From contig OZ024743.1 of NCBI GenBank assembly GCA_964016885.1, positions 253,704,001-253,768,000 of the forward strand: a DNA stretch of 64,000 nt. Direction: 5' to 3'. Both the position numbers and the translations under genes were made by a program. Shown here in pieces: positions 4,744 to 61,069 of the stretch (position 1 is the stretch's first letter; each line of letters opens with the position of its first letter). The notes beneath the pieces were generated by a model. It made no database searches and was not told where the DNA came from. It saw nothing but the letters and a program-made list of their open reading frames with translations. Source of the DNA: Eledone cirrhosa (lineage: Eukaryota).

Positions 4744-4745
<2 letters not shown>

Positions 4746-5319
4746 TTGTAATAAAATGAAAACGAAATTTCATTTCTCACTCTTAGTACGGCACTTACTT
4801 AAATGTAAGTATGTATGTATACGTACATACATAACTGTATGCAGACGTACAGTAGCATGCATATATATATATATATATATATATACATACAGGTACACAT
4901 ACATATATGTACGTATCAGTTTAGCGGACGCTTATTATAACGCCCGCTTTGTTCGTTTGTAAACAAACTGAACAGCCTGAATTTATGCCGTACGGTGTTA
5001 AGGCAACCACGTCACCTTTTTGTTCAACACTGACACAGGAACGATGTACTAGTTTCAAGCTTGTTAGCTGTCATCAACACCGTATACCCTTCTGCCAGAT
5101 GGTTGAACGTTCGAAAGTATATACTTTCCTTATGAAAATTAACGGCTGAGCAGCCTAATTTGCATATCGAGTGAGTTGAGTCGGCCAGGCGTACCGAAAA
5201 TCGTAAGTTGTAATAAAATGAAAAAGAAATTTCATTTCTCACTCTTAGTACGGCACTTACTTAAATGTAAGTATGTATGTATACGTACATACATATATGT
5301 ATACAGACGTACAGTAGCA

Positions 5320-5374
<55 letters not shown>

Positions 5375-5412
5375 GTACACATACATATATGTACGTATCA
5401 GTTTAGCGGACG
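4744..5412 (-). mobile_element. hammerhead-bearing ~460-bp repeat, about 1.4 tandem copies in a (TA)n tract (family A)
   Basis: agttgtaataaaatgaaaa..gaaatttcatttctcactcttagtacggc at 4744 and 5206 (offset 462). Homologous to 38054-39270 and 59848-60430. Confidence 0.8.
5041..5083 (-). ncRNA. minimal type I hammerhead ribozyme motif (core UUGAUGA, possibly decayed)
   Basis: Reverse complement acggtg-TTGATGA-cagctaacaagctt-GAAAC-ta-GTA-catcgt: stem I acggtg/catcgt, stem II agct/agct, palindromic stem III ACUAGU. Confidence 0.65.
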
Positions 5413-22743: not shown

Positions 22744-23165
22744 ACCCAACGTTAAACAAGGTTCATTGATTATTCAATGAATACAGTTTTACAATAGATT
22801 AAAAGCACCCAACTGTGAAGTTTTCCGGAGTTATTAATATTATTCAAAATATTGATAAATGGTTCCATTCACATAATCAAAATATGTTTTATTGTATATA
22901 TTTCGGAGGTACTGTGTTGTTTTTTCAGTACGTCCTCATCAGATAAAAAACATAAATTGATGCATGACATACCTCAACTGTGCTGATCATTCAATTCCAG
23001 ACTGGAATTGAACCATCAGCACAGTTGATGTATGACATGCATCAATTTATGTATTTTATCTGATGAGGACATACTCATAAAATAACACAGTACCTCCGAA
23101 ATATATACAATAAAACATATATTTTGATTATGTGAATGTAACCATTTATCAATATTTTGAATAAT
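22743..23165. mobile_element. fold-back insert in (TA)n with hammerhead motifs in both arms (family C)
   Basis: Arms ~22838-23000 and 23002-23165 centred on caattccag-a-ctggaattg. Plus arm 23054-23115 reads ttttat-CTGATGA-gga..tcc-GAAA-tat-ATA-caataaaa; tail 22743-22837. Confidence 0.8.
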
Positions 23166-23187
23166 ATATATATATATATATATATAT

Positions 23188-24300
23188 AAACAGAACCCAG
23201 ATCCCCTCAGGGAAATGGCCTTACTCAGTATAGGTAGGAACTCCATTCTCTGCCCCAAATGCAAACAATCGGTACACAAGAGATATAGCGGGATCTCAGG
23301 AAGCTTAATTAACAATGTAATCTTCACATGCAGCAGCTGTACTGGGCCAGCATGCAGCAAAGAGCCACAGGATACAAGTACCACACATCTCTGGGAGGGC
23401 TCGGTAGAGACAGTAGACAGCTTCTGCTACCTTGGTGACCGAATTAGCAGCGGAGGTGGGTGTTCAGAAAGTACAATAACTAGGATAAGAACGGGATGGA
23501 AGAAGTTCAGGGAACTACTACCACTGCTAGCTGCAAAAGGCTTCTCCCTCAAAATGAAAGGCAGACTGTATGATGCGTGTATCCGAACAGCAATGTTACA
23601 TGGTAGTGAGACCTGTGAGCTGAAAGTGGAAGACTTACGTAGATTAGAAAGAAACGAAGCCTGCATGCTCCGATGGATGTGTAATAGTAATATACGCGAA
23701 CGACAAAGCATAAATGAATTGAGAGAGAGACTGAGCATAAGAGGAATCAAATGCTGTGTGCAGGAGAGGCGGATTCGTTGGTATGGACATGTGATGCGTA
23801 TAAAGGGTGACAGCTGCATAAAAAAGTGCAGAGTACTAGAAGTCGATGGAAACCGCGGAATGGGGAGACCTAAGATGACCTGGGATGAGGTGATAAAAGC
23901 CGACGTTACCCAATTACACCTCTCAAAGTCTATGACACACGACCGTGACCTCTGGTGTCACGCAGTAATACAGAGTACCCGACCTCCCATGGGTACAAGC
24001 TGAAGCATATAGACAATATGCCCCCACACACCCCACCGCAAGGTGGTCGTGGAGGTGCCACGATAAAAAAAAGCATGCAGCCCACACTGTAAAGCGGACG
24101 TGTAGGGGCTACGAAAAAGCACCCAGTACTCACTGTAAATGAGGTTGGTGTTAGGAAGGGCATCCAGCTGTAGAAATCAACCCAAATCAGTTCCTGTATG
24201 AGCAAGGCATGGTCAGCCGACCAGACACTGCCCACAACAGGACAACCCGTCTAACCCATGCTAGCGTGGAAGAACGGACGTAAAACGGTGATGATGATGA
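23188..24300 (+). mobile_element. 5'-truncated RTE-clade LINE (RT C-terminus plus 3' UTR and (ATG)n tail)
   Basis: ORF 23215..24003: VDSFCYLGD..SSGGG..RIRTGWKKFREL..KGRLYDACIRTAMLHGSET..LERNE..MLRWMC..RWYGHVMR..GRPK.TW, typical of RTE; Cys-rich insert at the N-end; ends gtgatgatgatga. Confidence 0.9.
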
Positions 24301-26586: not shown

Positions 26587-27394
26587 TCATCATCATCATC
26601 ACCGTTTTATGTCCGTTTTTCCATGCTAGCATGGGTTAGACGGGTTGTCCTGTTGTGGACAGTGTCTGGTAGACTGACCAAGCCTTGCTCATATAGGAAC
26701 TGATTTTGGCTTGATTTCTACAGCTGGATGCCCTTCCTAACACCAACCTCATTTACAGTGAGTGCTGGGGGCTTTTTTCGTGGCGCCTACACGTCCACTT
26801 TACAGTGTGGGCTGGATGCTTTTTTGCCGTGGTACCTCCACGACCACCTTGCAGTGGGAGGGTGTGTGGCATATTGTCTATATGCTTCAGCTTGTACCCA
26901 TGGGAGGTCGGGTACTCTGTATTACTGCGTGACGCCAGAGGTCACGGTCGTGTGTGATCGCCTTTGAGAGGTATAATAGGGTAAGGTCGGCTTTTATCAC
27001 TTCATCCCAGGTCTTCTTGGGTCTCCCGCGGTTTCAATTGACTTCTAGTGCTCTGCATCTTTTTATGCAGCTGTCATCCTTCATACGCATCACATGTCCA
27101 TACCAACGCATCCGCCTCTCCTGCACACAGCATTTGATTCCTCTTATGCTCAGTCTCTCTCTCAATTCATTTATGCTTTGTCAATCGCGTATATTTCTAT
27201 TACACATCCATCGGAGCATGCAGGCTTCGTTTCTTTCTAATCTACGCAAGTCTTCCACCTTCAGCGCCCAGGTCTCACTACCATGTAACATTGCTGTTCG
27301 GATACACGCATCATACAGTCTGCCTTTCATTTTGAGGGAGAAGCCTTTTGCAGCTAGCAGTGGCAGTAGCTCCCTGAACTTCTTCCATCCCGTT
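26583..27394 (-). mobile_element. 5'-truncated RTE-clade LINE, same family as 23188-24300, opposite orientation
   Basis: ORF 27181..27444 shares TGWKKFRELLPLLAAKGFSLKMKGRLYDACIRTAMLHGSET; 3' UTR and (cat)n tail at 26583. Confidence 0.9.
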
Positions 27395-28513: not shown

Positions 28514-28830
28514 AGTGGTTACACAACAGTTAGTTCACCATACGGAGAACAATTGTTTCACCTTAGCGGATCCCCAGCTCGTAATGGACATGGTTATACG
28601 GAACAGTAAGGACAACCATACGAACGCGCATGCGCAGAATCCATCGCATGCGCATTCGTATGGTTGTCCTTCCTGTTCCGTATAACCACATCCATTACGA
28701 ACTGAGGATCCGGTAAGGTGAAACAATTGTTCTCGGTATGGTGAACTAACTGTTATGTAACCACGTCTACCTAACTCGTCCCATGGACTGAGTGCTCTAC
28801 CATTACGGATATTACCTTCCAGTGTTCTAC

Positions 28831-35822: not shown

Positions 35823-37830
<2,008 letters not shown>

Positions 37831-37848
37831 TATATATATATATATATA

Positions 37849-38023
37849 TAGATGAGATTCTACAGGACTAGAACTGCTTCATTCTTTAGAAATCATCTGT
37901 TGATTTCTAAAGAATGAAACAGTTCTAGTCCTGTAGAATCTCATCTATATTAAAACTTTTATACTCTGCAATGTATTGAGTACCTTACTTACTATGGTTA
38001 CCTCCGATTCAACCCGGAATAAC

Positions 38024-38024: not shown

Positions 38025-38053
<29 letters not shown>

Positions 38054-38055
<2 letters not shown>

Positions 38056-39270
38056 CGGAAAAAATGAAACGAAATTTCATTTCCCACTCTTAGTACGGCT
38101 GTTACTTAAATATAAGTATGTACACGTACATACATATATGTATACAGACGTACAGTAGTATGTATATATATATATACATACATGCAGACATATATATATA
38201 TGTACGTATGGATTCAGCGAACATTTATTATAATGCTCGGTGTGTTTGTAAACAAACATCCCGTATTAAGCCGTAGTGTCTAGCAACCTTCGTTGCTCGT
38301 TTGTTCAACACTGACAAAGGAACGCTGTACTAGTTTCAAGCTTATTAGCTATCGTCAGAAACGTATACCTTCCTGCCAGATTGTTGAACGTATATACTTA
38401 CCTTATGCATATTAACGGCTGAGTAGCCCAATTTGCATATCGAGTAGGTTAATCGGCCGGGTGCACCGAAAACGATTAACGGAAAAAATGAAACGAAATT
38501 TCATTTCCCACTCTTAGTACGGCTGTTACTTAAATATAAGTCTGTACACGTACATACATATATGTGTACAGACGTACAGTAGTATGTATATATATATACA
38601 TGCACACATATATATATGTACGTAATGATTCAGCGAACATTTATTATAATGCTCGGTGTGATTGTAAACAAACATCCCGTATTAAGCCGTAGTGTCTAGC
38701 AACCTTCGTTGCTCGTTTGTTCAACACTGACAAAGGAACGCTGTACTAGTTTCAAGCTTATTAGCTATCGTCAGCAACGTATACCTTCCTGCCAGATTGT
38801 TGAACGTATATACTTACCTTATGCATATTAACAGCTGAGTAGCCCAATTTGTATATCGAGTGTGTTAATCGTCCGAGTGCACCGAAAAAGGATTAACGGA
38901 AAAAATAGAACGAAATTTCATTTCCCACTCTTAGTATACGTTAGGTATACGTTGCTGCCGATAGCTAATAAGCTTGAAACTAGTACAGCGTTCCTTTGTC
39001 AGTGTTGCTAGACACTACGGCTTAATACGGGATGTTTGTTTACAAACACACCGAGCAGTATAATAAATGTTCGGTGAATCCATACGTACATATATATATG
39101 TGTGTGCATGTATGTATATATATATATACATACTACTGTACGTCTGTATACATATATGTATGTACGTGTACATACTTATATTTAAGTAACAGCCATACTA
39201 AGAGTGGGAAATGAAATTTCGTTTCATTTTTTCCGTTAATCGTTTTCGGTACCCCCGGCCGATTAACCCA
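38054..39270. mobile_element. family A array: two direct ~416-bp units plus an inverted unit, each with a hammerhead motif
   Basis: aacgctgtactagtttcaagc at 38321 and 38737 (offset 416); a third unit starts at ~38894; inverted copy at 38945-39270. Confidence 0.9.
38738..38780 (-). ncRNA. minimal type I hammerhead ribozyme (intact core); sister copies at 38322-38364 (-) and 38949-38991 (+, A6 to C)
   Basis: Reverse complement acgttg-CTGACGA-tagctaataagctt-GAAAC-ta-GTA-cagcgt: 6-bp stem I, stem II agct/agct, palindromic ACUAGU stem III. Confidence 0.8.
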
Positions 39271-44377: not shown

Positions 44378-46592
44378 AATGTGTTTTGGTACCCTTGAAA
44401 TATATATAATAAAATAAATATGGTTTTATAAATATAGTTTCCATTTATTTAATATCATTGGTACGCTTTCCTCAGATAAAATACAAAGTTTGTTTTATAA
44501 ATAGAGACATACCCATGAAAATCATACCTTATCGGTTGGATATTTCCTGGATAGTGGATATGCAAATGAATATGTAAATAATTGCAAAACAATCGTTTAT
44601 TTAAACGACTATGGAGAGAGAGAAGGATAAAATAGTGCGAGAGAGAGAAGAAAGAAAAAAAGGGAAGTTGAATAAAAACTCATATAACGTTAATTAGAGG
44701 GAAATATATTGTAAGTATATATCTTAATAGTACGTGTATTTACGATTATTAGTTTTTAAAATGTGTTTATAATATATTTTTCTTCTGTTATAAGTAGATA
44801 AATAAATAAATTTATAAATACATAAATAGATAGGTATATCATGTTATAGATAATTATTCTAATGAGTTATGAGGGATATTGGTTTTGTATTTTATGTAAA
44901 TAAATATTAAGTTAAATTAAATTAAATTAACTGAGTTAAGAAGAATATTTATAGGTATATGATTGAAACATTGGAAATCGGAAGATACGGAGAAAACTCC
45001 GGTTTAATTTATTTCTTCGTTAGTTTGAAACTATTTAGTCAAAATAAGTATAGATGTTGAAGATACATTTAGCCATAATCAGTTAGTGGTTATAAATTTA
45101 TTGAAAAAATATTGAAAAGGTATTGAGAAAGTATTGAAAAAAATATTGAAAAAATATTGAAAGAATATTGAAAAATTTGAGAAAAGTTGTTTTTAAAAAT
45201 AATTTATAAGAGATAAGTGATTTAAAAAATTAAAAATTATTAAAATAAAAATGTTATAAAATTAGAATTATACACATTATATACATTATTCATTTTATGA
45301 AACTTTAAGAAGCGGAATTACAGAAAATGTTATAGATATTATGATTTAGAGATATCAATATATTAAAACCAAGTGGATGAGATGGTTATGGAAATTAGTA
45401 GGAATATTATAAGTATAATTATAAGTTATATATAGTTCTGAATGTTGAAATCTGGCGATGTCTACAACAATTAAATAAATTCGTTCTTAGATTAATAGAG
45501 TTTTTACATTTAAGTATGTAAAACATTTCCTCAATACATAATTTTCAGAATCTAGATACAGCTGTGTTTTGGTACGCGGGTGCTTTAGAAACTGTTTCCC
45601 AAGCTAATGAATAGTCCATATTCTTGCATTTTAAGTTCCATATCAGGTTTGAAAGAGAAGTTGAAGATTTGTTATCAAATGTTCGGAAAGAACAATTGTG
45701 ACTTTTAAATTCTGTAGAAGTTGCACCGACATAGTTAAATATATTATCACTAGTTTTAACTGTGCATTTATAGACCACGTTTTTATCTAAATACTTATTT
45801 TGTAAAGGACAGTTTGATTTAATTCTAGAGTTACATTTTGCGGAGTTGTTGTTGTTCGGAACGGTACTATTATGTTGGATATTGCTAGAGATATTACTGC
45901 TATTTTGGTTATTTTGGTTAGGGTTTAAATTTCTATTATTTATTATATTTATATGTTGTGCTATGTTCATAGTAGTAGAGTAGGATAGTTTTATAGTATG
46001 TCTGTTAAAGATTGAGTGGTATCTGTGGGCTTTAGGAAATAATTTATCAAGTGCTTTAAAGAATAGCTTTGCTAAAAGTGTTTTTATGCTTAATGAGAAT
46101 GGGGGTGAGTACCAAATAATATTTCTAGTTCTAGTTCTTTTGTTAGTTTTAGAGTTTAAGTTAATTTTATTATTATTATTACAATTAATAGTAGGGTGAT
46201 TTGCCTTATTACTGTTGTCGATGTATTTAATCTTATTTGTATACACTACTCTATTTAAAGCTTCATTATAATATTTCAGCATTATCGTCAATATTGTTTT
46301 TATTAGCGGAGATGAGTGAAATCCGTTGTTGAACAGAATTGACAATAGTGTTCTTGATAGAGTAGGATGATTAGAGTTAAAACTTACATAGTTTAGATTC
46401 TCATTAATTTTATGGAATGGATAGTAGAGCCCTGTGTAAAGGTTTAATATTACGTCTAAAAAGTTAACAATTTTATAGTTATTCTCTATTTAATATCATT
46501 GAATATTTACTCCAGTTACCAGTTGAGTGCTCTAAATCAGTTATAAACATTTATATTTATCGGACTTCCAACAAATTAAATACCCCTTCTAC
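44375..46592 (-). mobile_element. 5'-truncated Penelope-like element (RT C-terminal end, linker, GIY-YIG, AT-rich 3' UTR, family E pLTR pieces)
   Basis: 46488-46360 (-) reads IENNYKIVNFLDVILNLYTGLYYPFHKINENLNYVSFNSNHP. ORF 45545..46345 has RNIIWYSPPFS..FPKAHRYHSIFNRHTIKLSYS..CPL..NVVYKC..YVGAT. The ends match family E. Confidence 0.85.
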
Positions 46593-47297: not shown

Positions 47298-47640
47298 TAT
47301 GCATATATAGCATATATATTTATATATATATATATATAAAGAAATTAAAATTTAGCTTTCACTCTAACATAGTAAATGCATAAATGTACTAGTGAGTTTT
47401 ATATCGAATTTATTATAATATTTGATTCATTTGCAAGCAAACAGCTTTATCACATTATGTTCTTTAGATGACTATTGTTATCTAATAATCATAAAGAGAT
47501 GTGGCTGTTTGCTTGCAAATGAATTGAATATTATTACCATTCAATATAGATTTAACCAAAGCACACACTCAATCACACATATATACACTCACTCACACAC
47601 ACATATGCATATCTTTATACATAAATACAACCTTAAATAT

Positions 47641-49251
47641 CTGGAAAAAGCCTTTGACAGAGTCCCCCGCTCCATTATCTGGTGGGCTCTTAGAAAACTA
47701 GGTGTAGATGAATGGCTTGTGAGAGCTATACAAGATATGTATAATAAAACAGTCAGTAAGGTTAGAATTAACAATGAATATTGTGAAGAATTTAGTGTAA
47801 AAGTTGCTGTTCACCAAGGCTCTGTCCTTAGCCCCCTGCTATTTATTATTGCCCTTCAGGCTATAAAATAGGAGTTCAAGACCGGCTGCCCATGGGAACT
47901 CCTATATGCAGATGATCTAACGCTCATAGCTGAATAAATGGCTGAACTAGAAAAGAAACATGGAAGCATAGCCTAGAATCAAAAGGCCTTAGAGTTAACT
48001 TGTCTATGACTAAAATCATAGTTTGTAGAAAGGAAAATAAGGCACAGGTACCCTCAGGGAAATGGCCTTGCTCAGTGTGTAGGAAAGGAGTAGGCAGAAA
48101 TTCAATTTTATGTCCCAAATGCAAAGTATGGGTACGTAAAAGATGTAGTGGGATCACAGGTAAACTATCTAAGAACGTAGACTTTATATGTGTCCGATGC
48201 TCAGGAGCAATAGGTAGCAAGTGTCCACAGGATACTAGCCCCTTCTATTGCCCAGATGGTTCTATAGAAATAGTAGACACTTTCGGTTACCTGGGTGACG
48301 AAATCAGCAGTGGTGGAGGGTGTTCTGTAAGTACAGTAGCCAGAGTCAGAACGGGATGGAAAAAGTTCAGAGAGCTTATACCACTGTTGGCCACAAAGGT
48401 TTCTCTCTAAAAATGAAAGGCAGATTGTATGATGCCTGTATACGAACAGCAATGCTACATGGCAGTGAGATATCGGCATCGCGTGCATAGGACCTGCGTA
48501 GACTGGAAAGGAACGAAGTATGCATGCTCCGTTGGATGTGTAAGAGTAATATACGTGAACGGCAAAGCATAAATGAACTAAGTGAGAAATGATGAATAAG
48601 AGGGATCAGATGCTGTTTACTCCAGAGAAGATTACGTTGGTATGGCCACGTGATGCGCATAAAAGACGACAGCTGTATAAAAAAGTACAGGGCGATCAAA
48701 ATTGATGGTAGTTACGGAGTAGGTAGACACAGAAGAACCTGGGACGATCTGATAAATTCCGCCCTTACACACTTGCACCTCTCTAAGCCAATGTCACAGG
48801 ACCGAGATCTTTGGTGCTACGCAGTAATACAGAATATCCGCCTTGCCTATGTACAAAGCGAAACCTACAGTCAGTAGCCACCTCTTAACCAAATATACAC
48901 CCCAACCCTATCCTCCATCTCTCACCAACACCACACCCTCTCTATAAAGTTGTTACAACAACATCCAGTCCAAATAAATAAGATAAATGAGATCGAGATC
49001 GTGTAGGTGTTAAGAGAAAGAAACACACAGTCCACGCTGTAATGTGGTCGTGTAGGTAACACGGTAAAAAGTTCCCAGTTCCACACTGTAAATGTGGTTG
49101 GTGTTAGGAAGGGCATCCAGCCATAGAAAACCTGCCAGAATGTCCTATATGAGCGAGACACTGTCACCCGACCAACCTTTCCTCAAGTGGGACAACTCCC
49201 GTCTAACACATTCTAGCGTAGAAAGTGGACTTTAAACGAGGATGATGATGA

Positions 49252-49252: not shown

Positions 49253-49329
<77 letters not shown>

Positions 49330-49482
49330 TAAGATGTATGGTAGGACGTATGTGAATCGCGATGATCACGTCTGACTTACCAAATATGTGACGGTAGCTA
49401 GTTAAGCTCTATGCGTATACGCAGAGCAGAAATATTAGTGAAAAAGAACAAAGGAACTATTATGACATTATAACAAGTTTAT

Positions 49483-49529
49483 TGCCGACAGCCGTTTCGT
49501 CCGACCCCATGGTGGGACTTATCAAGGCA
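49483..49529 (-). ncRNA. hammerhead ribozyme motif (U3-A8 variant) in the sense pLTR
   Basis: Exact reverse complement of 53815-53861. Confidence 0.75.
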
Positions 49530-50449
49530 TATAACATGTGATTGCAAGATCATTGTTTATATCAACGTATCACTCAAGGCTAGCAGTTTGAAATTGTTGT
49601 ATACATCAGCAACTCCGCTTTAAGGGGGGCTCTTTTATATTAGTTGTCGGGGTCAGGGATTGAAGTTTAAAAATTAGACAAAAATATATAATTCACGCAT
49701 CAACATTAAACCAAGAGACTTGGGGTCCCGCAGAAGTACCTCAGAAAATCCCTCAATGAGTGAATAAAGCTTACAGGCTCCAATACACCTATTAGTCTAG
49801 AAGAAAATTAAGAGGCTAATAAAATAAGAAAATAAAAATATAAAGTTTCCCTAAAAAATATATAGAGTTCCTATGAAATTTCTTCTAGAGAAAAAAAATT
49901 TTTCCGAAAGAAAAAAACCTTCTTCCCCCGAGATCACGTTTACAAAATTCAGAAAACTGAATTGAAAACTAGGTTGAAAGAAACTAATCAATTAGAGGTT
50001 AATACAGAGAGCCTTCCATAAATCTCTCAGAAAAGGCCCCTTTACTATTTCCAGTAGGAACTTCTTCCGAGAGACCCTTCGAAGAATTAAAATTTTAGAG
50101 AGCCTTTGAGGATAAATATAAAAACGAATTGAGGAAAATTATACATTAAAAGTTAAAAATAAAAAATTACGTTATTTGGGATATCCAAGGAATTTTCAAA
50201 GGGTTTCTTCAACAGATACAACTTAGGCATAATAGGTACAATAATCTAAGCAATTTAAGCAATTTAATTATGTAGCAATTCAAGGAGTTTATCAAGTTGG
50301 GCAAGTTTAAAGAATGTGGTAACTAAGAAAATACATAAGCAAAAAAACAATAATCATAAAATGTATCTTTAAGAAGGTACAAGGTAGCTTAAGTGATCTA
50401 ACCCCGCATTATCACAAAAAAACATTCCAAAATTATATATACAGGATTA

Positions 50450-50600
50450 AAAATTATTACAAAATCATTACAAAATTACCACAAAATCATTACAAAATTA
50501 TCAAATCATCACAAAATTACCACAAAATCATTACAAAACCATCAAATTATCATAAAATTATCGCAAAATTATTACAAAATTATCATAAAATTATTGCAAA
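50450..50600. repeat. 11-12-bp tandem repeat (AAAATYATYAC) inside the PLE 3' region
   Basis: Directly visible. Confidence 0.85.
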
Positions 50601-51934
50601 AATATAACAGGATGAACATTACTGGTGACCGTGTGGGCGCGATATCCATTCTGCCTATGCAGTCCCCTGCACAGCTCCAGGCACGATATCCACTAGGCGT
50701 AAGCAGTCATCTGCCTAGCTCCAGGCGCAGCTGGTCATGTTTAAACGTTCATAGATCACCTGGGGTTCACTATTATCTGCGTGGACTCTCTGGGAGATGT
50801 ACCTGTGGATCTAATAGCCAGTGGTTGCCGGATGTGGTCCGTTCGATCCTTTATTTTCAGGGGTTGAACGCTTTCGCGATAGAAGAGCCTGCTGGTTCTA
50901 AGTCCAAGGTTTCGCCACGCATGATGTATTGGTCCACATGCTATATCGTTAAAAAACCAGTGTGGATTTGACTGGGGTGGTATATTACGAACTCCAAGTC
51001 CGCACGCGACTGGTCAAAAGCGAAGGGCTGTCCTCTCTTTGTTTGCTGTATGGGTCGTTCTCAGCTTAGATGGTGGTCGTGTTATCCATATTCCGTCAGC
51101 CCTGTATATTGAAGACAGATCAGGGTATGTATTTGCGGGTATGGTCCTGCGTCTACGTTATCCAGAGGGTCTCGCTTGTGGTATTTTCAAGTTCGCATGT
51201 CATCTCCCGGTTAAGACTGCGCATGCTTCGGTGAATCTCAAGCATGGAATCTTAGGGTATCATATTACACGGGGTGACCAGCAGAAAATATACATTCTAT
51301 GCTATCGCGCACGCGCTGGCCTGTGGCTACGACCGTGTCCAATCTCGGGTAGTAGCAGACAGCAGGTAGACCAGCTATACACACCCCTGATCAAGGGGCA
51401 AAACCCCTAACTTATCGAGTGGTCAGACTTCAAGGGAGTCAACTCTCCAAGCCCATTATGTCAACCGTGGTGAAATACAAAAAAAATCCTATTAGTAAAG
51501 AACTAATCACTGATAATAAAGAACCAGCTCAAAAGAATGGGGGGGGCATCTATTTGTGCGGGGGTTTACTAGGGGAGGGGGTGGGGTGAGTTGCTATAGG
51601 CAGGGAGCGGCCGCCATATTGGGTGTTTTGTTACTGTTTCCCTAGGCAGTTCTCGAGTTTGTTGACATACATCTCCGACGGCACCCTCTCAGATTAGTCA
51701 ACGTGGTTCCAGGCCCTCACGATGTCCTGCATCGCAGGCATCAGCTGCCCCCCGGTTGCCCAGCAACAGTGTTGCCACCAATCCCAGGTTGGCAATTGGG
51801 ACACAGGGTCGTCTGTTCCTCACCAGAGTCCCCATCGCCAATCGGGGAGCCGAGGCATCCATGCGGCCGGGGTTACCACAGAGCACCCTGTACGCCAGCG
51901 GGGCCGCCAAGTGCAGGACTGGGTGGTGCCATGG

Positions 51935-53047
51935 CTATGTGTCCGGTCTAAAGAAAAAGAAAGAGCTAAGTATTGTATGGGGGCAGGACGAGAAGATTTC
52001 TGATCTCCTGTTGAGCAAGTTGAGCCCTGAGAATACTATGGCATGAGATTCAGATAGGCACAGGCTACAACACCTGCTCAACGAGCTATATGGAGGAGCT
52101 TTAGTAAGGCATCTCCAGCTGAGTGTGTAGGGGGTTTTTGTTTGTTTTAAGCTATGTATATGCCCCGCTAACGACGTGGTATTTTTAAGCTTCTCATATC
52201 GGAAGCTATGCTGGTGGGCGTTGAACCTCGTCTTGAACTCATTAGCGGTTGATCCTACGTACGTCTTAGTATACGTGCCTGTGGTTACGTTACAAGCATA
52301 TACCACGTTCCTGATAAGGCAGTGTCCAGCTAGTGGGCATTTGTCCTTCTTTCTGCAATTACACTCTTTAGTAGGGACATGCCCCTCAATCAGGGGTGCA
52401 TGTCCCTCCAAGCGGCCGCGGGGCTGCCTAGTGGGACCGGTTCTATTGCCTAATATCCCCCTGGGTCTTTCACTCAGTGGGTTGGTCCCGTGTTGTCGTG
52501 TGTGCTGGCGTGGTTCACTATTTCGGATGGCCTTAAGTCCCTCTTTGATCTTACTCTTATTGGTCTTAGCTAGGTGTGAGGCCAGATTAGGGGTTGTAGA
52601 GTACGATAGCTTGAGAGTATTCTTATTGATGACACTACCGTACCTACTACCCGGGGGGAAGTTCTTATCTATTAAAGAGAAAAAAGATTTGGGGAGGTCT
52701 GTAGTAACATTAGAGTTGAAGGGCGGGTTAAAGAAGGTACTATCACGTCTTCTATTCCTTCCACTGCATTTCCTATCCCCTATGCAGTTTGTCCTCTCTT
52801 CGTCTATATTATCACTGGTTCTACCAGGTGTGGTTGCTGTACACCCAGTGGTATGTGCGTTGGTCTCAAGTCTCCTAGGCCTCTGTCCCCCGTTTTCACT
52901 GTTGGACTTGCTCGGGGCGGCATAGCGTTTACCAGGTGTGCGGGCCCTGTCCGTGTCTGCGTTGCGAGTGTTGCTGTTCTTATCTAACTTCCTATTGTCC
53001 CTATTCGTCTTTCTAGCTCTCCCTCCACTTTCTTTAAACTTGCCCAA
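51935..53047 (-). CDS. GIY-YIG endonuclease domain of a Penelope-like retroelement (5'-truncated, no RT)
   Basis: FFNPPFNSNV..FPPGSRYGSVINKNTLKLSYS..CNCRKKDKCPLAGHC..NVVYAC..YVGST..FKTRFNAH..W..Y..CSLCLSE..LNRRSEIFSSCPH. The annotated start lies within the inverted repeat, so it is an artefact of truncation. Confidence 0.85.
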   Translation of the reverse strand: MGKFKESGGRARKTNRDNRKLDKNSNTRNADTDRARTPGKRYAAPSKSNSENGGQRPRRLETNAHTTGCTATTPGRTSDNIDEERTNCIGDRKCSGRNRRRDSTFFNPPFNSNVTTDLPKSFFSLIDKNFPPGSRYGSVINKNTLKLSYSTTPNLASHLAKTNKSKIKEGLKAIRNSEPRQHTRQHGTNPLSERPRGILGNRTGPTRQPRGRLEGHAPLIEGHVPTKECNCRKKDKCPLAGHCLIRNVVYACNVTTGTYTKTYVGSTANEFKTRFNAHQHSFRYEKLKNTTSLAGHIHSLKQTKTPYTLSWRCLTKAPPYSSLSRCCSLCLSESHAIVFSGLNLLNRRSEIFSSCPHTILSSFFFFRPDT

Positions 53048-53814
53048 CTTGATAAACTCCTTGAATTGCTACATAATTAAATTGCTTAAATTGCTTAGAT
53101 TATTGTACCTATTATGCCTAAGTTGTATCTGTTGAAGAAGCCCTTTGAAAATTCCTCGGATATCCCAAATACCGTAATTTTTAATTTTTAACTTTTAATG
53201 TATAATTTTCCTCAATTCGTTTTTATATTTATCCTCAAAGGCCCTCTAAAATTTTAATTCTTCGAAGGGTCTCTCGGAAGAAGTTCCTACTGGAAATAGT
53301 AAAGGGGCCTTTTCTGAGAGATTTATGGAAGGCTCTCTGTATTAACCTCTAATTGATTAGTTTCTTTCAACCTAGTTTTCAATTCAGTTTTCTGAATTTT
53401 GTAAACGTGATCTCGGGGGAAGAAGGTTTTTTTCTTTCGGAAAAATTTTTTTTCTCTAGAAGAAATTTCATAGGAACTCTATATATTTTTTAGGGAAACT
53501 TTATATTTTTATTTTCTTATTTTATTAGCCTCTTAATTTTCTTCTAGACTAATAGGTGTATTGGAGCCTGTAAGCTTTATTCACTCATTGAGGGATTTTC
53601 TGAGGTACTTCTGCGGGACCCCAAGTCTCTTGGTTTAATGTTGATGCGTGAATTATATATTTTTGTCTAATTTTTAAACTTCAATCCCTGACCCCGACAA
53701 CTAATATAAAAGAGCCCCCCTTAAAGCGGAGTTGCTGATGTATACAACAATTTCAAACTGCTAGCCTTGAGTGATACGTTGATGTAAACAATGATCTTGC
53801 AATCACATGTTATA

Positions 53815-53861
53815 TGCCTTGATAAGTCCCACCATGGGGTCGGACGAAACGGCTGTCGGCA
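53815..53861 (+). ncRNA. minimal type I hammerhead ribozyme motif with U3-A8 covariant core
   Basis: tgcc-TTGATAA-gtcc-caccatggggtc-ggac-GAAAC-ggct-GTC-ggca: stem I tgcc/ggca, stem II gtcc/ggac, GUC cleavage triplet. Confidence 0.75.
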
Positions 53862-53929
53862 ATAAACTTGTTATAATGTCATAATAGTTCCTTTGTTCTT
53901 TTTCACATATATATATATATATATATATA

Positions 53930-54958: not shown

Positions 54959-55422
54959 TGTATATATAGTGTATTTGGTAATACACTGTATGCTTAATTA
55001 AACGCATTTTTGAAGACCTTACGCTACTCTCTTAAAGTATTGACTATGTCACTTACTTTTTTTTTCAACAAACAAAGGGAGATAAGCTGACAGATCTCTG
55101 TTTCATATTGTTGGTATTCCTCAGAGCACCAATTCTAATTTTCAAATTTTGCTGGACCGACAACCGCTTGGTATAATTAGTTCCTGATTATTACTGGAAT
55201 ACTATAAGAATCCAACATTCATAATCTTTCAACAGACAAGGGGAGTGCTAAGCTCTGAGGAATACCAACAGTATGAAACAGAGGTCTGTCAGCTTATCTC
55301 CCTTTGTTTGTTGAAAACAGAAGTAAGTGACATAGTCCCTACCTTAAAACAATAGCTTAAGGTCTTCAAAAATGCTTTTAATTAAGCATACAGTTTATTA
55401 CCAAATACACTATATATACATT
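54957..55422. mobile_element. fold-back insert with ~170-bp arms and a hammerhead in each arm (family G)
   Basis: 54957-55127 is the reverse complement of ~55252-55422; spacer ~125 bp; TA-flanked. Confidence 0.85.
55249..55296 (+). ncRNA. canonical type I hammerhead ribozyme
   Basis: taagct-CTGAGGA-atac-caaca-gtat-GAAAC-aga-gg-tct-GTC-agctta: all core nucleotides present and all three stems paired. Antisense sister at 55083-55127. Confidence 0.88.
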
Positions 55423-59847: not shown

Positions 59848-60430
59848 GTATAAGTATGTATACGTACATACATATATGTATACAGACGTACAGTAGTATG
59901 TATATATATATACATATATGCACACATATATATATATATGTACGTATGGATTCACCGAACATTTATTATAATGCTTGGTGTGTTTGTAAACAAGCATCCC
60001 GAATTAAGCCGTAGTGTCTAGCAACCATCGTTGCTCGTTTGTTCAACACTGACAAAGGAACGCTGTACTAGTTTCAAGCTTATTAGCTATCGTGAGCAAC
60101 GTATACCTTCCTGCCAGATGGTTGAACGTCTGAAAGTATTTACTTTCCTTATGCATATTAACGCCTGAGCAGCCTAATTTGTATATCGCGTGTGTTAATC
60201 GGCCGGGGTACCGAAAACGATAAACGGAGAAAATGAAACAAAATTTCATTTCTCACTCTTAGTACGGCTGTTACTTAAATATAAGTATGTATACGTACAT
60301 ACATATATGTATACAGACGTACAGTAGTATGTATATATATATATATACATGCACACACATATATATATACGTATGGATTCACCGAATATTTATTATAATG
60401 CTCGGTGTGTTTGTAAACAAACATCCCGTA
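59848..60430 (-). mobile_element. family A repeat, partial tandem, hammerhead core mutated (CUCACGA) at 60060-60102
   Basis: Collinear with the 38054-38893 units. Confidence 0.8.
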
Positions 60431-61069
60431 TTTTCTTCTTTTCACTCTCCACTGTCTGTCTATTCATTTATTTCTCATTTTATCTTCTGATGAGGGAGTA
60501 GTCTCCAAAATGTTGAGACACTTATCATACTTTAAATTAATATATATCGTCATTTTAATACATTATTTGTTTTGTTGTTTTCCTTTTAATTTTAGTACAG
60601 ATACGTACACACACACATAGATATTATACTGCTCATGAGTGACAACATGTGTATGTATATGTCGATATGTATGTACATGCTTATGAACTCAAATATCAGG
60701 TATCAGGTGTCTTTATACATTATTAATCACAAAGTAATAAAGAATCTGACTGGTCCTTCTTGCAACTTGAACCTGTAGTTACAGTTGCATATGGCAATGT
60801 TTGTTATTTGGCTCCCTACAGGATTTTGAGATCTTTAGTACCCTGTGGTCACTCCTGTGTTACTCTAATTGACGTGCGGTAGACTGAGGCATGTCTATCG
60901 CTACAGAAACACAATCTCACATCTAAAAAACAGTGATGGTGTGGTGATGGTGGGGGTGACTTGTACGAAGACGAGGAGAGGAAAATCATGATGTTATTGA
61001 TAAGGGAGGTGCTAGTGACATGAATTATGTTTATTATACACAAACATATCCTATATGCTTCCATATACA

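Follow-up and report, generated by a model that had tools for sequence, protein, structure and literature searches.

The element located at 38054–39270 of the window (the whole stretch of 64,000 nucleotides of Eledone cirrhosa DNA that was analyzed) can be interpreted, with a probability of about two in three, as one insertion of a high-copy, non-coding tandem that works as a non-LTR retrozyme. Judging from their sequences, family A, to which this insertion belongs, and its sister family B would constitute a new member of the animal non-LTR retrozymes. The sequence features by which retrozymes are recognized were found together: tandem non-coding units with hammerheads, a GC content below 50%, a self-paired monomer, and Penelope-like elements (PLEs) in the genome.

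Layout of the locus and extent of the families

The locus consists of a direct arm with its RNA sense on the minus strand (38054–38936) and a head-to-head inverted partial arm on the plus strand (38943–39270). The direct arm contains two full units (38054–38477 and 38478–38894) and a third, 5′-truncated piece (38895–38936, minus strand). It was recognized by TRF as a tandem at 38053–38936 with a period of 416, 2.1 copies and 94% matches, the start-to-start spacing of the units being 424 and 417 nt. The tailed 3′ end abuts a (TA)n target tract (38025–38053, no strand assigned) and is followed, always on the minus strand, by a tail of ~57 nt with a hairpin (38054–38110), which lies between two fixed 3′ ends, S (~38110) and T (38054), and by a self-complementary TA-rich hairpin ending at S (38111–38210), which is the site of most of the length variation between copies. 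Next come a downstream type I hammerhead with an extended helix I (38296–38388; C3 at 38358, predicted cut after 38328) and the promoter-like module of unit 1 (38391–38439; TATGCAAATT at 38439–38430, TATA at 38396–38391), and then an upstream, consensus-like type I hammerhead (38712–38804; C3 at 38774, predicted cut after 38744) and the promoter-like module of unit 2 (38807–38855), the motif of which is mutated at one position. The two minus-strand cores, CUGACGA..GAAACUAGUA, thus have predicted cuts exactly 416 nt apart. The inverted arm bears an A6→C substitution and a 22-nt deletion, extends ~34 nt beyond T, and has its right end outside (TA)n. The three units of the locus have one common change that is absent from all the other sampled loci.

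Two other copies occur in the window on the minus strand. One belongs to subfamily A2 (4744–5412); it has a period of 462, a C3→U change in its core and a tailed end that lies in (TA)n, and it shows, at 4753–5363, 78–87% identity to the unit of the 38054 locus; the other is a partial tandem (59849–60432, core G5→C) with 91–94% identity. Just to the left of the 38054 locus there is a near-perfect 103-nt palindrome (37847–37949) and, at 37805–37832, a hairpin followed by CTAG, which we take to resemble a Helitron 3′ end.

The first-pass annotation of this DNA had described two direct hammerhead units on the minus strand, 416 nt apart, then an inverted unit, and partial tandems at two other sites of the window. 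TRF and the core positions agree with the direct units, the inverted unit is present as a partial arm, and decayed copies were found at both other sites. Three of its statements held in part. The cores that it gave as intact in the two direct units are so, but pair 1.1–2.1 is broken in the downstream one, and the core of the inverted arm is changed (A6→C); the TA-rich setting applies to the insertions in (TA)n but not to the right end at 39270; and the unit of 416 nt applies to this locus, most copies of its subfamily ranging from 414 to 424 nt. The locus is an ordinary, damaged copy of the family. It is probably a poor source of RNA and, being damaged, it is a poor construct for the dimer cleavage assay that had been suggested.

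The search of the genome (3.0 Gb in 1,796 contigs) with a 256-nt unit query returned 993 candidates, and all 40 that were scored were 97–100% identical. A 32-nt core pattern gave 24,525 exact matches, compared to none with the reversed control, which indicates that the hammerhead motif is not due to chance; in the copy-number check proposed at first pass, the family is thus very abundant. Thirty-three cut-to-cut monomers were recovered, 18 of 414–424 nt (subfamily A1) and 15 of 460–538 nt (A2). None of the 33 contains an ORF, in agreement with the lack of coding capacity and the non-autonomous character claimed earlier. A pattern with the G10.1–C11.1 core and the helix III of family A gave 9,541 matches (control, 1), and the 100 listed all corresponded to the sister family B, with a unit of ~466–470 nt (e.g., loci L181–L210, L219–L224 and L327–L340). 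Families A and B are ~66% identical over 180–240 nt, the helices being kept by compensatory change. With at least 34,000 intact cores, dispersed across many contigs, both families make up a sizeable part of the genome. The longest array of family B has 31 units and is heterogeneous, with patchy variants along it. The unit has a GC content of 37.5% and the monomer, folded as a circle, reaches −127.9 kcal/mol (z −7.0, 40 shuffles); the antisense monomer gives a z of −5.5, so the strong self-pairing comes partly from the TA hairpin. A splice-donor-like AGGTAAGT upstream of the ribozyme is found only in subfamily A1.

Class and conservation of the hammerhead

The motif folds into a helix I of 6 bp with a UAU/U loop and a long extension, a helix II formed by a U.U and three pairs around UAAUAA, and a helix III reduced to one A-U pair closed by CUAG; the fold z of the hammerheads is −2.5 and −2.3. 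The palindromic helix III stretches (ACUAGU) of two copies pair with a computed energy of −6.8 kcal/mol. In this fold, helix III is like that of axolotl HHR_Amex1 (a single pair with a palindromic tetraloop) and the base of helix II, with its U.U, is like that of axolotl HHR_Amex2. The available part of PMC4209133 defines the canonical metazoan type I hammerhead and the minimal one of PLEs, the latter by a helix II of 7–8 bp, a short helix I with an ill-defined loop 1, and an extra base after position 9. The motif studied here has a four-pair helix II and a 6-bp helix I with a conserved loop and an extension. So, by these definitions and from its predicted fold, it is a canonical-size metazoan type I hammerhead, not a minimal one. 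The first-pass annotation was therefore right about tandem type I hammerheads with a palindromic stem III, with which fold and motif agree, and mistaken in the class named, ‘minimal’.

An Rfam scan gave no hammerhead among the 150 matches listed of 159, and its miRNA matches were discarded as noise from the TA hairpin. The hammerhead call rests thus on motif, covariation and copy number. In an alignment of 19 sequences (11 of family A and 8 of family B), 95.3% of the helix cells were paired and 8 of 19 pairs were changed on both sides. The covariation score was 0.466 versus 0.221 in shuffled alignments (0/500 as high), with a maximum of 0.110 when the alignment was slid. The number of pairs with two-sided change was not above the shuffles (177/500), most changes being a single A/B split. 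Pair G10.1–C11.1 is G-C in family B and is replaced by U.U in family A, which leaves it unpaired in 11 of 19 rows. The loop-2 UAAYAA and the helix I extension are kept across the families despite their ~66% identity. Public runs consisting of contigs of unrecorded kind (X1, X4, X5 and X6) were taken for variant positions only, as such contigs are not informative on RNA ends or levels. Within 38740–38780, the variants of at least 2% in X1 and X4 were limited to N7, N17, a single base of loop 2 and the two partners of pair 1.3–2.3, leaving the core free. The helix covariation, together with this core-free variant pattern, argues for a ribozyme under selection.

Concerning the downstream hammerhead of the 38054 locus, a U at position 2.1 (38359) eliminates pair 1.1–2.1 beside the cut, while G occupies this position in 99.9% of the X1 depth. 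If two hammerheads paired, cleavage at the upstream site would be the one impaired by this mismatch. The change G2.1→U was considered as the mark of a lineage and discarded, because it affects only one unit per array and the 10 loci had been picked with a query bearing it.

Further hammerhead-like cores occur in the window at 22942, 23060, 29697, 29902, 44475 and 59577, as well as at 28702 and 33661 and at 55124 and 55255. They belong to at least three more families, some as inverted pairs.

Insertion ends, mobilizing machinery and template

Two fixed positions serve as 3′ ends of the copies: S, at the base of the TA hairpin, and T, ~57 nt beyond S (~75 nt in family B). These ends almost always enter (TA)n. 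The 5′ ends are scattered, with no pile-up at the cut or, as judged by eye, at the predicted transcription start. Considering the 89 head-to-head junctions counted in 141 loci, 55 combine S and T (40 in family A and 15 in family B), one is S+S and one T+T, two run off the locus, and 30 have a non-standard end, which in some of them is a microsatellite alignment artefact; the 38054–39270 locus is among these 30. S+T was then the combination in 55 of the 57 classifiable junctions (p ~1e-14 against 0.5). Other features of PLE mobilization are also present: 5′ truncation, head-to-head inversion and an AT-rich target. According to the portion available of PMC11167929, the reverse transcription of a PLE can begin at either of two internal sites, which delimit the tail; according to those of PMC8557442 and PMC3846280, it is common for just one of the ends to have a tail. 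It seems reasonable to interpret that S and T are reverse transcription start sites. The S+T ends, taken with the start sites of PMC11167929, support well the action of PLE machinery in trans, and we consider mobilization by this machinery very likely. PLE reverse transcriptase had also been proposed in the first-pass annotation, and it is supported by the finding of two fixed 3′ ends, each used by one of the arms.

The comparison can be extended to what the accessible parts of these papers (PMC11167929, PMC8557442, PMC3846280) describe for endonuclease-positive PLEs, including Anolis PAc. Families A and B are like them in their partial tandems, head-to-head arms and AT-rich targets, and in having a pair of 3′ ends with a hairpin tail between them, the tail being carried at just one end. 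They differ in that they have no ORF, their hammerhead is canonical and not minimal, and their tail is longer (~57–75 nt versus 30–40 nt). As S and T are strictly divided among the two arms, twin priming may be proposed, each strand having its own start site; for PAc, the strands did not differ in vitro (available text of PMC11167929).

The same inverted layout, with a tail of ~105 nt, is displayed between 49327 and 53907 by an ORF-bearing PLE of the window (49327–53912). This PLE is 5′-truncated and has 888-nt inverted arms; both its ends lie in (TA)n, one of them tailed and the other short. It contains a C-terminal endonuclease-type frame (51935–53068, minus strand by sequence) and, near 53819, a motif resembling a hammerhead, the core of which is a U3/A8 variant. 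A second PLE 3′ fragment (44475–46489) has a frame at 45545–46489 on the minus strand and a hammerhead-like core downstream at 44475. Pfam gave no match for these two fragments, and their assignment is based on the genome endonuclease query, the likeness of an 877-aa frame to PLE-type clusters, and visible motifs. There are also three stretches that we assume to be LINE-like reverse transcriptase fragments (23161–24003, 26820–27394 and 47419–48410), two of which are inverted arms ~3 kb apart.

Since PLEs themselves combine a tandem-plus-inverted layout, a tail and (TA)n targeting (PMC8557442, in its available part), the units could be the 5′-truncated pLTR ends of an autonomous PLE outside the sample. 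The genome is rich in such elements. A GIY-YIG family search gave 10,595 candidates and an endonuclease query 64,531; open frames of 840–970 aa occur in near-identical copies, one 877-aa frame resembles PLE-type clusters, and autonomous PLEs are present, as are PLEs with minimal hammerheads. When the A and B units were compared to 104 PLE loci, representing few families among tens of thousands of candidates, no sequence parent was found, the unit matches being only inserted copies and low-complexity matches; one hairpin match (L071) turned out to be an inserted family B copy. Conversely, 29 of the 141 family loci had a PLE protein match nearby, but, by coordinates, an endonuclease end ran into the unit in none of the 141, and an ORF with reverse transcriptase and GIY-YIG between the repeats, as in autonomous PLEs, was absent from family loci and monomers. 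Beyond the tail, the sequence re-enters the same unit and never an ORF, both in the 33 monomers and in arrays of up to 31 units. At one locus (L351:2171), a PLE ORF, C-rich and of high copy number, is represented by its 5′ half, which is fused to an A2 unit at the 5′ end of the latter, both having the same orientation. This junction would be either a template switch or a deletion, and in 14 loci the PLE family concerned has a minimal hammerhead of its own and no homology to the unit. Two more loci considered as chimeric junctions (L352 and L353) were single head-to-head neighbours and not decisive. An ORF-bearing parent is thus unlikely, as far as a PLE sample covering few families goes, and the derivation of the units from truncated pLTRs is very improbable. 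The possibility that the copies were simple pLTRs attached to autonomous PLEs had been named at first pass as contrary to a non-autonomous family; it was looked for, and what was found agrees with the latter.

Concerning the template, the units of one insertion resemble each other more than those of different loci, as would result from a single template per insertion. In subfamily A1, divergence was 1.9% within loci for direct pairs (n = 71) and 1.7% for inverted ones (n = 42), versus 4.2% between loci (4,815 pairs); in A2, the values were 1.3% direct, 2.8% inverted and 5.7% between loci. In a 9.3-kb head-to-head insertion of family B (L221, G000:C1:30831600–30840900), the 18 full monomers, 6 and 12 per arm, are all identical, as would be expected from copying round a circle, although this identity may be exaggerated by assembly polishing, which could homogenize repeats. 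Private variants are in part common to the inverted arms of one insertion, but in multi-unit loci they mostly affect a single unit (119 versus 16 common in A1; 62 versus 8 in A2), and a family A array (L212, G000:C1:19314200–19317800) displays an ABAB higher-order pattern. These single-unit variants and the ABAB array indicate that later mutation and local duplication also act. The ABAB array might even be taken, with the patchy variants of the 31-unit array, as a sign that the families grew as satellites, mainly by duplication of the DNA through unequal exchange after a few seed insertions. This is scarcely probable and is largely refuted as the main route by the dispersal of copies over many contigs, by the fixed 3′ ends in (TA)n with scattered 5′ ends and the S+T rule, and by the private variants common to inverted arms.

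Out of 202 arms, 166 cross the cut site, 125 exceed one unit and one begins at the cut site; the share crossing is inflated, as loci were chosen for having a hammerhead or a near-full unit. The arms that cross the cut site indicate that cut linear monomers are not the template, which should be either a circle or an uncut multimer. The second option would mean a PLE-mobilized element copied from uncut multimeric transcripts of tandem sources, with a hammerhead that trims transcripts or is a passenger, and with circles absent or irrelevant. It agrees with the fact that, in vitro, cleavage is dispensable for insertion, ribozyme mutants insert normally and uncut RNA is the main template (available part of PMC11167929). 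The retrozyme interpretation also has against it the low activity of PLE hammerheads and the failure to cut of 8 of 9 Xenopus dimers tested (as stated in the accessible portions of PMC4209133 and bioRxiv 10.64898/2026.07.22.740005, respectively). Helix III is weak, the base of helix II is a U.U, and arrays of at least 30 units exist as possible sources, of which a homogeneous one would likewise yield identical arms. On the other hand, families only ~66% identical have preserved the full ribozyme, down to the extension of helix I and the UAAYAA of loop 2. Moreover, it would be awkward for a 9-kb transcript to stay uncut when it carries 19 intact ribozymes, and the 31-unit array is heterogeneous while L221 is uniform. 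On balance, copying from uncut transcripts is unlikely, though clearly less so than the pLTR and satellite explanations, and a circular RNA intermediate is somewhat favoured by the genomic evidence.

Candidate promoter, proposed cycle and relation to known retrozymes

When A1, A2 and two B variants were aligned, 219 of the 495 columns proved invariant. Two of the invariant stretches exceed all others in length, and TATGCAAATT (10 nt), which has a TATA-like box downstream of it, is one of these two. Its octamer is intact in 146 of 161 A units. The 10-nt run alone is unsurprising, and its weight comes from its identity with a host motif, TATG(C/G)(A/T)AAT(T/G)AG, located at −76 to −78 with a TATA at −30. 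Host motif and TATA are present in 6 of 9 distinct U6 upstream regions (of three unrelated types), and also at the best of 8 U6atac loci and at the single MRP gene; within 150 nt of the start, the motif was found in none of 11 U1, 8 U2 and one RNase P regions. With a four-site host matrix, the units scored above 300/300 base shuffles (A2, B and B3) or 298/300 (A1). The PLE loci, which amount to 488 kb, contain a single instance of the 12-mer, inside an inserted copy. The motif-to-TATA offset is 42–43 in A1, A2 and B, 4–5 nt closer than in the host (46–48); such spacing is tightly kept in insects, according to the part available of PMC1761439. Every subfamily contains T4–T6 runs, so read-through by Pol III would be hindered. 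The position TATA+30 precedes the cut by 39–58 nt and belongs to the 5′ strand of helix I, in its extended form. Compared to a type 3 (U6-like) Pol III promoter of the host, the module has both the upstream motif and the TATA box, but not the spacing between them. From the sequence evidence, the chances that the motif-plus-TATA module functions as a promoter are about even; presumably, it could also be a plain octamer-plus-TATA Pol II promoter.

The units of newt satellite 2 and Schistosoma alpha repeats likewise have a promoter ahead of a hammerhead and, from the portions available of PMC6765202 and PMC2220036, their promoter is handed on only when units are in tandem. If the promoter of A and B lay outside the transcript, the need for tandems would be explained in the same way. 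The newt promoter is of snRNA type and used by Pol II and the Schistosoma one is a Pol III promoter, while the candidate motif of A and B is of the type of host U6, U6atac and MRP, not of U1, U2 or RNase P, and has a shorter spacing.

Several observations were made on the host genes in passing. The RNase P RNA gene (L350, G000:C24:12936134) has an ATCAGT-type upstream element like that of U1/U2 and not the U6/MRP motif, a sequence feature that hints at Pol II-type transcription. A TTACCTCCCT-like motif is found ~255–290 nt upstream of many U1, U2 and U6 genes (L231–L281), and also in several PLE 3′ regions (L076, L079 and L175). Promoterless U6atac/U6 copies lie beside (TA)n or other repeats (L343, L344, L349 and L264) and are possibly retrocopies.

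Considering all this, the cycle proposed is that a multimeric transcript is cut by paired ribozymes to give a ~420-nt circle, which is copied into (TA)n by a PLE reverse transcriptase. Transcription might start at the motif-plus-TATA module, ~40–60 nt upstream of the cut, and read into the next unit, a step to which we give even odds. Two hammerheads would then pair through ACUAGU before cutting, which is quite likely, and the monomer would probably be closed by a host ligase. A PLE protein acting in trans would nick both (TA)n strands, and the PLE origin of this machinery is the firmest point of the scheme. One cDNA would begin at S and the other at T, giving the head-to-head arms, and long arms would arise, somewhat more probably than by other means, from repeated passage round the circle. 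The more detailed version is put forward tentatively: a retrozyme lineage without a pLTR parent would have captured a host U6-type motif, and its insertion would proceed by twin priming from S and T on a rolling circle.

As to known retrozymes, excerpts of PMC7229834 (Cervera and de la Pena 2020) describe retrozyme circles in coral, mussel and axolotl and PLEs as a strong candidate mobilizer, and those of bioRxiv 10.64898/2026.07.22.740005 (Li, Clavereau and Pollet 2026) link Xenopus retrozymes to pLTRs, leave the mobilization mechanism open and also discuss local amplification. Families A and B are like metazoan non-LTR retrozymes in their tandem non-coding units with a canonical-size type I hammerhead and without LTR features. 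Their units (414–538 nt) are at or above the range of 150–450 bp given in the text available of PMC7229834; the 2026 preprint gives, in its accessible part, 51–972 bp. Unlike 24 of the 57 Xenopus families in that part of the preprint, they had no pLTR parent among the 104 PLE loci, which cover few families, and unlike the metazoan retrozymes with demonstrated circles, they are known here from genome sequence alone. The fixed S and T ends, the rule of one of each, and the U6-type upstream motif are absent from the parts of the retrozyme descriptions compared, and no description of the S+T rule or of a U6-type motif in a retrozyme was found in the literature searched. On retrozymes or Penelope hammerheads of cephalopods or octopus, that literature, subscription papers being mostly outside its scope, yielded only PMC8557442. 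The supplements of PMC7229834 list further invertebrate retrozymes, and the family may already be recorded in such supplements.

For animal retrozymes, the mode of transcription and the machinery that copies them into the genome are still hypothetical. Here, the signature of PLE start sites can be counted in two young families, the insertion of identical monomers can be checked against circles, and a concrete promoter candidate is offered, so the family makes the questions of mobilization and transcription directly testable. If the detailed version of the cycle were true, the lineage would have lived as a non-coding parasite for long enough to form families 66% identical, and a PLE reverse transcriptase dimer acting on circular RNA could lay down 19 identical units per event. 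This would provide a rule for the splitting of PLE start sites between strands, and the passage from circle to genome in the retrozyme cycle would be directly documented by genomic data.
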